From an uncultured Bacilli bacterium (GTDB lineage Bacteria; Bacillota_I; Bacilli_A; RF39; UBA660), in NCBI GenBank assembly GCA_947588865.1, contig CANPYQ010000001.1:1-36877 (forward strand): a stretch of DNA of 36,877 bases. Direction: 5' to 3'. Positions 1-36,877 of the stretch are shown piece after piece. The position numbers were made by a program, and so were the translations under genes. Under the pieces are notes generated by a model, which was not told the DNA's origin, ran no database searches, and worked only from the letters and a program-made list of their open reading frames with translations. The first letter of the stretch is position 1. Every line of letters starts with the position of its first letter.

Positions 1-269
1 TCAACACATTCTTTAATTTTAATAATATCATTATCATTAATTCTTTTAGGGGAATGAATAGGTCTTCTAGATTTATCCTTTAATCCAGCAATACCATAAA
101 CAGCATATCTTCTACACCATTTCTTAATAGTATTTTTAGAACAATTATAAAATCTAGCAGCTACTTTAATACCATTTTCATTAGAATATCTAACCAACTC
201 TAATCTTTTATCGACTAATACTTTTTCATTATCAATACTATCATAGAGTTCTTTATAACTTGTCCACAT
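1..269 (-). CDS. IS481-family-like transposase, N-terminal HTH part (partial, continues beyond the window edge)
   Basis: My own translation of the minus strand from the ATG at 269 gives MWTSYKELYDSIDNEKVLVDKRLELVRYSNENGIKVAARFYNCSKNTIKKWCRRYAVYGIAGLKDKSRRPIHSPKRINDNDIIKIKECV with no stops. The pattern HTH...KW..RY...G..GL.D.SRRP..SP is typical of IS481-type transposase N-termini. Confidence 0.7.
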   Translation of the reverse strand, partial: MWTSYKELYDSIDNEKVLVDKRLELVRYSNENGIKVAARFYNCSKNTIKKWCRRYAVYGIAGLKDKSRRPIHSPKRINDNDIIKIKECV

Positions 270-364
270 AAATTTCACCTCCAATCTATAACCACATATT
301 ATATATCAAAATACAAAAAATACATAATAACCATGGGGTCACTATGTATTATATATTTTTAAAA
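1..364 (-). mobile_element. Partial IS copy (IS481-family-like), inner end. The transposase gene reads leftward out of the window.
   Basis: The reverse complement of 235-364 matches 36748-36877 over about 130 nt, with 3 mismatches (left 240, 306, 312 = right 36872, 36806, 36800). Homology stops at 364/365. It contains the transposase start and its RBS (cacctcc, 276-283). Confidence 0.75.
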
Positions 365-438
365 ATAAGTAAAGTTTACTTGTTTTTTTATTTAGAATGA
401 TTTATAATAATATTATAATGAGATTGTAGGTGACAAAT

Positions 439-36720: not shown

Positions 36721-36750
36721 AAATGAAATTGACTGTAGTCAATTTCATTT
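36721..36750 (+). terminator. Perfect 13-bp hairpin terminator after spoVG, abutting the IS end
   Basis: aaatgaaattgac (36721-36733) pairs with gtcaatttcattt (36738-36750) around a 4-nt loop. Its 3' end touches the IS homology boundary at 36748. Confidence 0.65.
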
Positions 36751-36877
36751 TAAAAATATATAATACATAGTGACCCCATGGTTATTATGTATTTTTTGTG
36801 TTTTGGTATATAATATGTGGTTATAGATTGGAGGTGAAATTTATGTGGACAAGTTATAAAGAACTCTATGACAGTAT
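36748..36877 (+). mobile_element. Partial second IS copy (IS481-family-like), inverted relative to the copy at 1-364. The transposase gene reads rightward out of the window.
   Basis: Matches the reverse complement of 235-364 with 3 mismatches. It contains RBS GGAGGTG and an ATG at 36843. Confidence 0.75.
36843..36877 (+). CDS. IS481-family-like transposase, first 11 codons (partial)
   Basis: ATG TGG ACA AGT TAT AAA GAA CTC TAT GAC AGT translates to MWTSYKELYDS, identical to the start of the minus-strand gene ending at 269. Confidence 0.65.
   Translation, partial: MWTSYKELYDS

Follow-up and report, generated by a model that had tools for sequence, protein, structure and literature searches.

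Inverted copies of an IS481-like element at the two ends of a Bacilli contig, probably independent insertions at a conserved chromosomal locus

Background

Near-identical pieces of an insertion sequence (IS), in inverted orientation, lie at the two extremities of a 36,877-nt stretch of DNA from an uncultured Bacilli bacterium, hereafter the window. Is the DNA between them a unit in any functional sense? A sequence-only reading had proposed that the IS copies bracket a 36.4-kb interval, that this interval might be inverted by homologous recombination or behave as a composite transposon, and that the left copy may have cost an accessory gene cluster one of its ends. Alternatively, the two copies may have nothing to do with one another beyond belonging to the same IS type. 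The window comprises all of contig C1, which is the longest of the 96 contigs in a MAG (G000) of 1.0 Mb, with ~25% G+C, an estimated completeness of 83.6% and a shortest contig of 2,577 nt, and it is cut off at both ends inside copies of a multi-copy 1.57-kb IS481-like insertion sequence. We here describe the element and its other copies, compare the locus across the genus, and weigh the competing accounts of its origin.

The two IS copies of the contig

A repeat finder and BLAST both recover the inverted, near-identical arms that had been described: the reverse complement of 235-364 agrees with 36748-36877 at 127 of 130 positions, and three mismatches over 130 nt is an identity far above chance. 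As had also been stated, both fragments open with the same transposase (MWTSYKELYDS...), which points outward, its ATG lying at 269-267 (minus strand) in the left copy and at 36843 (plus strand) in the right; there is one IS type, in two inverted copies, with the transposase-5' (IRL) ends pointing inward. Inverted homologous copies at both ends of a block (127/130) are what an IS-flanked invertible segment should display.

The mismatches fall at window positions 312/36800, 306/36806 and 240/36872, that is, at IS nt 50, 56 and 122. At nt 50 the right copy is unlike all other copies (a private G at 36800), at nt 56 the left copy is unlike the other copies in the MAG, and the nt 122 mismatch is synonymous (GAT/GAC). 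Five aligned independent junctions, together with target duplications, place the true IS ends at 361 on the left and 36751 on the right. These lie 3 nt inside the arms as first delimited, the extra Ts being chance matches in an AT-rich flank. The features of the two ends are as follows.

1..361, minus strand: left IS copy, the first 361 nt of the 1,566-bp element, with its IRL end at 361; 97.8% identical over 361 nt to nt 1-361 of the full-length relative L071; delimited by the five junctions and the duplications
3..269, minus strand: N-terminal 89 codons of the transposase gene, open at the contig end; Pfam HTH_28, HTH_32, HTH_29 and LZ_Tnp_IS481; 88/89 residues identical to P0127, the transposase of L071
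331..361, minus strand: IRL of the left copy; exact 31-nt IRL match
319..350, minus strand: terminator-like hairpin and T-run of the left copy, inside IRL and upstream of the transposase start; 14-pair stem in a consensus scan
362..376, no strand assigned: putative target (15 bp) used by the left copy, within the promoter region that precedes the surface-protein gene; from the 15-bp duplications of three other copies and of L015
430..3171, plus strand: secreted surface protein gene (913 aa), head of the cluster and first gene inward of the left IS; from the ORF list
36721..36750, plus strand: spoVG terminator hairpin; perfect 14-bp inverted repeat read directly (a scan gives a 13-pair stem, reported on the minus strand)
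36736-36750, plus strand: putative target (15 bp) used by the right copy, coinciding with the hairpin's 3' arm; 15-mer unique in the MAG
36751..36877, plus strand: right IS copy, first 127 nt; IRL 36751-36781, hairpin 36762-36793, ATG 36843

The left copy had been placed about 75 nt upstream of an adhesin gene, at the edge of an accessory cluster. The distance stands, the IS ending 69-78 nt before the start of the surface-protein gene (GTG 430 or ATG 439), but the description of the cluster as accessory does not, as the cluster has a fixed locus in relatives. On the right, the copy is indeed flush with the spoVG terminator, its end adjoining the 3' arm of the hairpin (36721-36750). This right junction recurs base for base, private G at 36800 included, in a second, independent low-coverage assembly (L068), and is therefore no chimera. 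With 361 and 127 nt visible, the full-length identity of the two copies would be an extrapolation from other junctions and from relatives.

Anatomy and affiliation of the element

In full-length relatives both end sequences are present 1,566 bp apart, which gives the length of the element; IRL and IRR occur together on one element in L071, L073, L074 and L015. Between them lie the genes for a 350-aa transposase, predicted to be of the DDE type, and for a conserved second ORF (ORF2) of 64 aa. The ends are terminal inverted repeats, as expected in IS481: both begin TAA and share the common core ACAT.GTGACCCC at equal offset, the GTGACCCC core sitting 12 nt from the start of similarity in IRL and IRR alike. 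Counted from the sequences, IRL and IRR match at 20 of the first 31 positions, and in L071 at 24 of 45. Both C1 copies have a hairpin with a following T-run directly inside IRL, and the IRR end contains a -35-like TTGACA facing outward. ORF2, which is acidic and located 3' of the transposase gene (L071:1215-1409, L015:5124-5318), is 81% conserved where the transposases are 77% identical. It is absent from relatives whose transposase identity is 69% or lower, and has no family match in Pfam or NCBIfam.

The transposase fragment in the window matches Pfam HTH_28, HTH_32 and HTH_29, with LZ_Tnp_IS481 just under the cut-off. In NCBIfam the complete P0127 matches IS481 best (E 2.5e-31, profile positions 1-266 of 284); since the score is 109 bits against a curated cut-off of 224, the element is a distant IS481 relative. 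The Pfam rve match likewise scores below its cut-off (22 bits against 32.6). The similarities to the family are several: a single transposase with a putative N-terminal HTH/leucine-zipper region and a predicted rve-type core, a best NCBIfam match spanning nearly the whole profile, and imperfect terminal inverted repeats accompanied by a direct target duplication. In addition, the outward -35-like TTGACA near one end is reminiscent of IS481, for which hybrid and outward promoters have been described (PMC6161684). The ends of the element differ from those of the family in starting with TAA, not TGT. IS481 elements measure 0.95-1.3 kb, carry a single ORF and generate target duplications of 4-15 bp. 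The 15-bp duplication of our element is at the top of this range, whereas a single ORF within ~1-1.3 kb is not what we find: the element is longer (1,566 bp) because of its conserved 64-aa second ORF. We have filed it as IS481-like, and it would represent a distant, longer family relative with an extra conserved ORF.

Other copies, target duplications and spread

The sequence-only reading had proposed counting and mapping other copies in the genome. The IRL shared with C1 also ends contigs C44, C55 and C75, and a search of contig ends for IRL-like sequence revealed IRR ends at C37_R, C43_R, C50_L and C86_R. Five IRL and four IRR junctions imply at least five IS copies in the MAG, with IRL ends at C1 (two), C44, C55 and C75. 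Perfect 14-15-bp target duplications, short as is expected for IS481, join C44/C37, C55/C50 and C75/C86, and because the same 14-15 bp lie outside an IRL and an IRR end, both end types belong to one element. A perfect 15-bp duplication also flanks the more distant copy L015. The adjacency of C44 and C37, the sole pair tested in this way, is confirmed by synteny in four relatives.

The 15-mers next to the C1 copies (362-376 and 36736-36750) occur once each in the MAG, and their IRR-side duplicates are absent from the bin; no shorter, cryptic IS overlap is present at any contig end of the MAG. A tblastn search of the MAG with a full-length relative finds, of the IS body, just the C1 left end and a remnant at C13:3618-3720. 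This remnant (G000:C13:3618-3720) is intergenic, degenerate, ~100 nt long and 85% identical to transposase nt 183-286, and is probably a decayed older copy. An exact-pattern scan for a full-length copy of this IS yielded only a contig-end fragment, L026, from the genome collection and nothing from JGI metagenomes. Exact-protein look-ups of the surface protein and SmpB for assemblies across the left junction returned no record, a look-up of the 521-aa protein returned one 1.8-kb contig that stops short of that junction, and no other assembly spanning a C1 copy was found.

Contigs of three further species in the genus also stop in this IS end, at 97-100% identity (G006: C59, C4, C48; G020: C4, C40, C8; G016: C9); it was not found in the closest relative, G021. 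The housekeeping DNA of those three species is ~78-80% identical to that of G000, and the far higher identity of the IS end thus points to recent horizontal spread.

Two further observations concern insertion sites and flanks. The C44/C37 copy has its 15-bp target inside an 11-bp palindrome, between the two arms (ATCGAGTATAT ... ATATACTCGAT). A motif of a similar kind, ACTCGAT, is found in the C43_R flank, which outside the IS shows 83% similarity to that of C37_R over ~85 nt; the palindrome and motif may be a shared operator or promoter of paralogous genes, serving as a preferred IS target. Full-length copies at L073:1422-2987 and L074:848-2413, both on low-coverage metagenome contigs, have no target duplication; either the assemblies are chimeric at the repeat or copies have recombined with one another.

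The locus in other species of the genus

Synteny was read in the DNA of 12 species from the genus. The order in relatives that lack the IS is C72-like DNA, then scpB-scpA, then the surface protein, the T4SS cluster, rnr, smpB and spoVG, then C42-like DNA. On the right side, spoVG is followed immediately by C42-homologous DNA (from ~8,665 downward) in G003, G004, G006, G014, G017 and G021, and beyond the C42-like DNA the relatives have mostly C93-, C61- and C31-like DNA. On the left side, a divergent operon of housekeeping genes, scpA-scpB, precedes the cluster in G004, G014, G005, G009, G013, G018, G024 and G041, with C72-like DNA further out from scpAB in most of them. In six of the left-side genomes a member of the surface-protein family lies between scpA and the 521-aa gene; the family of the 913-aa surface protein is multi-copy in the genus.

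The T4SS cluster (window 430-27091), with its VirB11-like ATPase and TrbL-like, VirB4-like, CHAP, M23 and VirD4-like proteins, is located between scpAB and rhodanese/rmuC in 12 of 12 relatives examined. At its left edge no integrase or relaxase was found in the relatives examined, the neighbour being scpAB. It had been suggested that the left IS removed or displaced an integrase/relaxase end of the cluster. Relatives without the IS carry scpA-scpB directly at the left edge and are also without an integrase or relaxase, which speaks against the loss of such an end through the IS. The view of the cluster as an accessory island with a missing end fares no better, as the cluster has a fixed chromosomal place in the genus with respect to both position and left boundary. 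Gene order thus shows the interior of C1 to be ancestral chromosome in a fixed position.

At the other end of the locus, smpB and spoVG are adjacent in the window; they lie on separate contigs in G002, G007, G020 and G023, and are ~6 kb apart in G041 and ~48 kb apart in G013. Insertions may recur in this genus in the short spacer between the two genes.

Why the contig ends where it does

The reading that we prefer, with a probability of roughly 85%, is that the window ends in two separate copies of one multi-copy IS481-like element, which inserted independently into ancestral chromosome, and that the repeat ended the contig. One copy would have entered the divergent scpA/surface-protein promoter region, with its end at 361, and the other the 3' arm of the hairpin that terminates spoVG, with its end at 36751. 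A short-read de Bruijn assembler working with overlaps of ~77 nt would stall at such a repeat and leave the unique DNA between the copies as contig C1. A private SNP in each copy would make the path unique, and for this reason the assembly could follow the IS for 361 and 127 nt, where ~77 nt would otherwise be expected. C1 would still be in the ancestral orientation, and its outer flanks would be found on pieces below the ~2.5-kb cut-off of the bin or in unbinned contigs.

The rest of the MAG is consistent with this. Repeats terminate 57 of its 192 contig ends (17 families, C1's two ends counted), and throughout the MAG contig ends have terminal overlaps of 74-77 nt in common, identically oriented, as is characteristic of de Bruijn graphs that break at repeats. 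Several of the contig-end repeat families have 4-6 members each. The number of repeat-ended contig ends suggests that a genome of ~1.2 Mb carries IS or other repeats in abundance. In C1, the shared repeat is seen over just 130 nt because the contig stops there. Any contig lying between unresolvable repeat copies would have the same look, as the 57 similar ends illustrate, and the proposed bracketing of the 36.4-kb interval loses its force: it is largely a by-product of assembly and an ordinary situation.

What can be said of the outer flanks? On the left, scpAB is absent from the bin, and a piece carrying it, between the IS and the next break, could easily be under the ~2.5-kb contig limit. 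On the right, the end of C42 nearest to spoVG (L064, 8708-9543, minus strand) is a partial gene from a multi-copy family other than the IS, with paralogues of 78-88% identity at C42:115-770, C46:160-892, C44:7342-7692 and C66:4601-5118 and no Pfam match. This gene is downstream of spoVG in G000 only, and is not at that site in relatives. C42 breaks because the contig enters a multi-copy paralogue, and a short piece from the IS to the paralogue would be lost.

We also considered whether the orphan IRR end C43_R could lie on the outside of one of the C1 copies and so betray a rearrangement. This can be ruled out: in G004 its neighbour is the right end of C31, and as C31 ends in unique sequence, C43_R/C31 is a plain gap. 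If G000 is collinear with G004, the copy at C43_R would lie ~33 kb past spoVG and have the same orientation as the right copy. A contig that is a circular element closed by a single IS is likewise rejected, as both ends enter the IS via IRL and do so with different private SNPs.

Inversion, joint mobility or artefact?

The inverted geometry does permit inversion by homologous recombination in principle, as had been argued, there being two inverted copies of one IS type. The copies might have recombined, or might do so recurrently, flipping the 36-kb block of T4SS cluster, rnr, smpB and spoVG in the strain or in part of the population; they are 98% identical over the visible 127-130 nt, and the outer flanks that could exclude such an event lie outside the bin. 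A precedent exists in Bordetella pertussis, where IS481-flanked inversions are common and hidden from short reads and where both arrangements have been documented in closed genomes (PMC4888882). The resemblance to C1 is in the inverted IS481-type copies around a chromosomal block, unseen in short-read assemblies. It does not extend further: most of the B. pertussis inversions lie symmetrically around the origin or terminus (PMC4888882), whereas here the block is local, 36 kb long and co-oriented, and no alternative arrangement has been observed. All 12 relatives examined share the same order and orientation, and each copy has kept its private SNPs near its inner end. Moreover, nearly all sizeable ORFs and every annotated gene of the block are on one strand, so that a local, asymmetric inversion would reverse them all; turning a co-oriented block against its direction is usually selected against, as reflected in gene-strand bias. 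With no positive evidence of any kind in its favour, we regard an inverted block as unlikely, and the inversion potential of the IS pair is only theoretical. The sequence-only reading had itself held that its case would fail if each copy had its own intact target duplication and if related genomes gave no sign of inversion. This is borne out in part: three other copies each have an intact 14-15-bp duplication, and the block is inverted in none of the examined relatives, while the IRR-side flanks of the C1 copies are outside the bin.

That both copies and the interior move, or have moved, as a 39-kb unit is an extremely improbable account. Two copies of one IS do flank the segment, inverted as in the composite transposons Tn10 and Tn5, and its outer ends would both be IRR, which resemble IRL. 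However, the interior is collinear with its counterpart in 12 species that have no IS there, it occupies the same place in the chromosome, flanked by scpAB and C42-like genes, and it holds the housekeeping genes rnr, smpB and spoVG. For a composite transposon one would expect the segment and both IS copies together at a new location, with a single duplication around the whole, and we found no second context of the segment; compared with Tn10 and Tn5, there is no sign of movement as a unit, and what lies between the copies is conserved core chromosome in its ancestral place. The proposal of composite-transposon behaviour is thus contradicted by synteny. The IS fragments could instead be artefacts of assembly or binning, k-mer joins to the IS of another organism, given that the data are metagenomic, that three further species of the genus have the IS end at 97-100% identity, and that it is at high coverage in several samples. 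We consider this highly improbable: the right junction and its private SNP recur in an independent assembly, three other copies in the MAG have matching duplications on contig pairs (with the C44/C37 pair confirmed by synteny), and each C1 junction runs well past one k-mer into the IS. A more elaborate scenario would have an undescribed IS lineage, marked by the conserved 64-aa ORF2, spreading horizontally among several species of this gut genus in recent times and preferring AT-rich sites close to promoters and terminators, with an inverted pair that mediates a real, possibly reversible inversion of the block and so alters expression of the secretion locus and the surface protein; as a whole, this is very unlikely. 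Independent insertion of two copies, with assembly halted at each, remains the account that we favour.

Conclusions

The case of C1 carries a caution: windows that consist of whole contigs often have repeat fragments at both ends, and no functional bracket is implied by them. By-products of the analysis are the anatomy of an IS481-like element, with its ends, 15-bp duplication and extra ORF, and three contig links that can be used in scaffolding the MAG. For the biology of the genus, the findings indicate that the T4SS locus is a fixed chromosomal feature and not a truncated mobile island.
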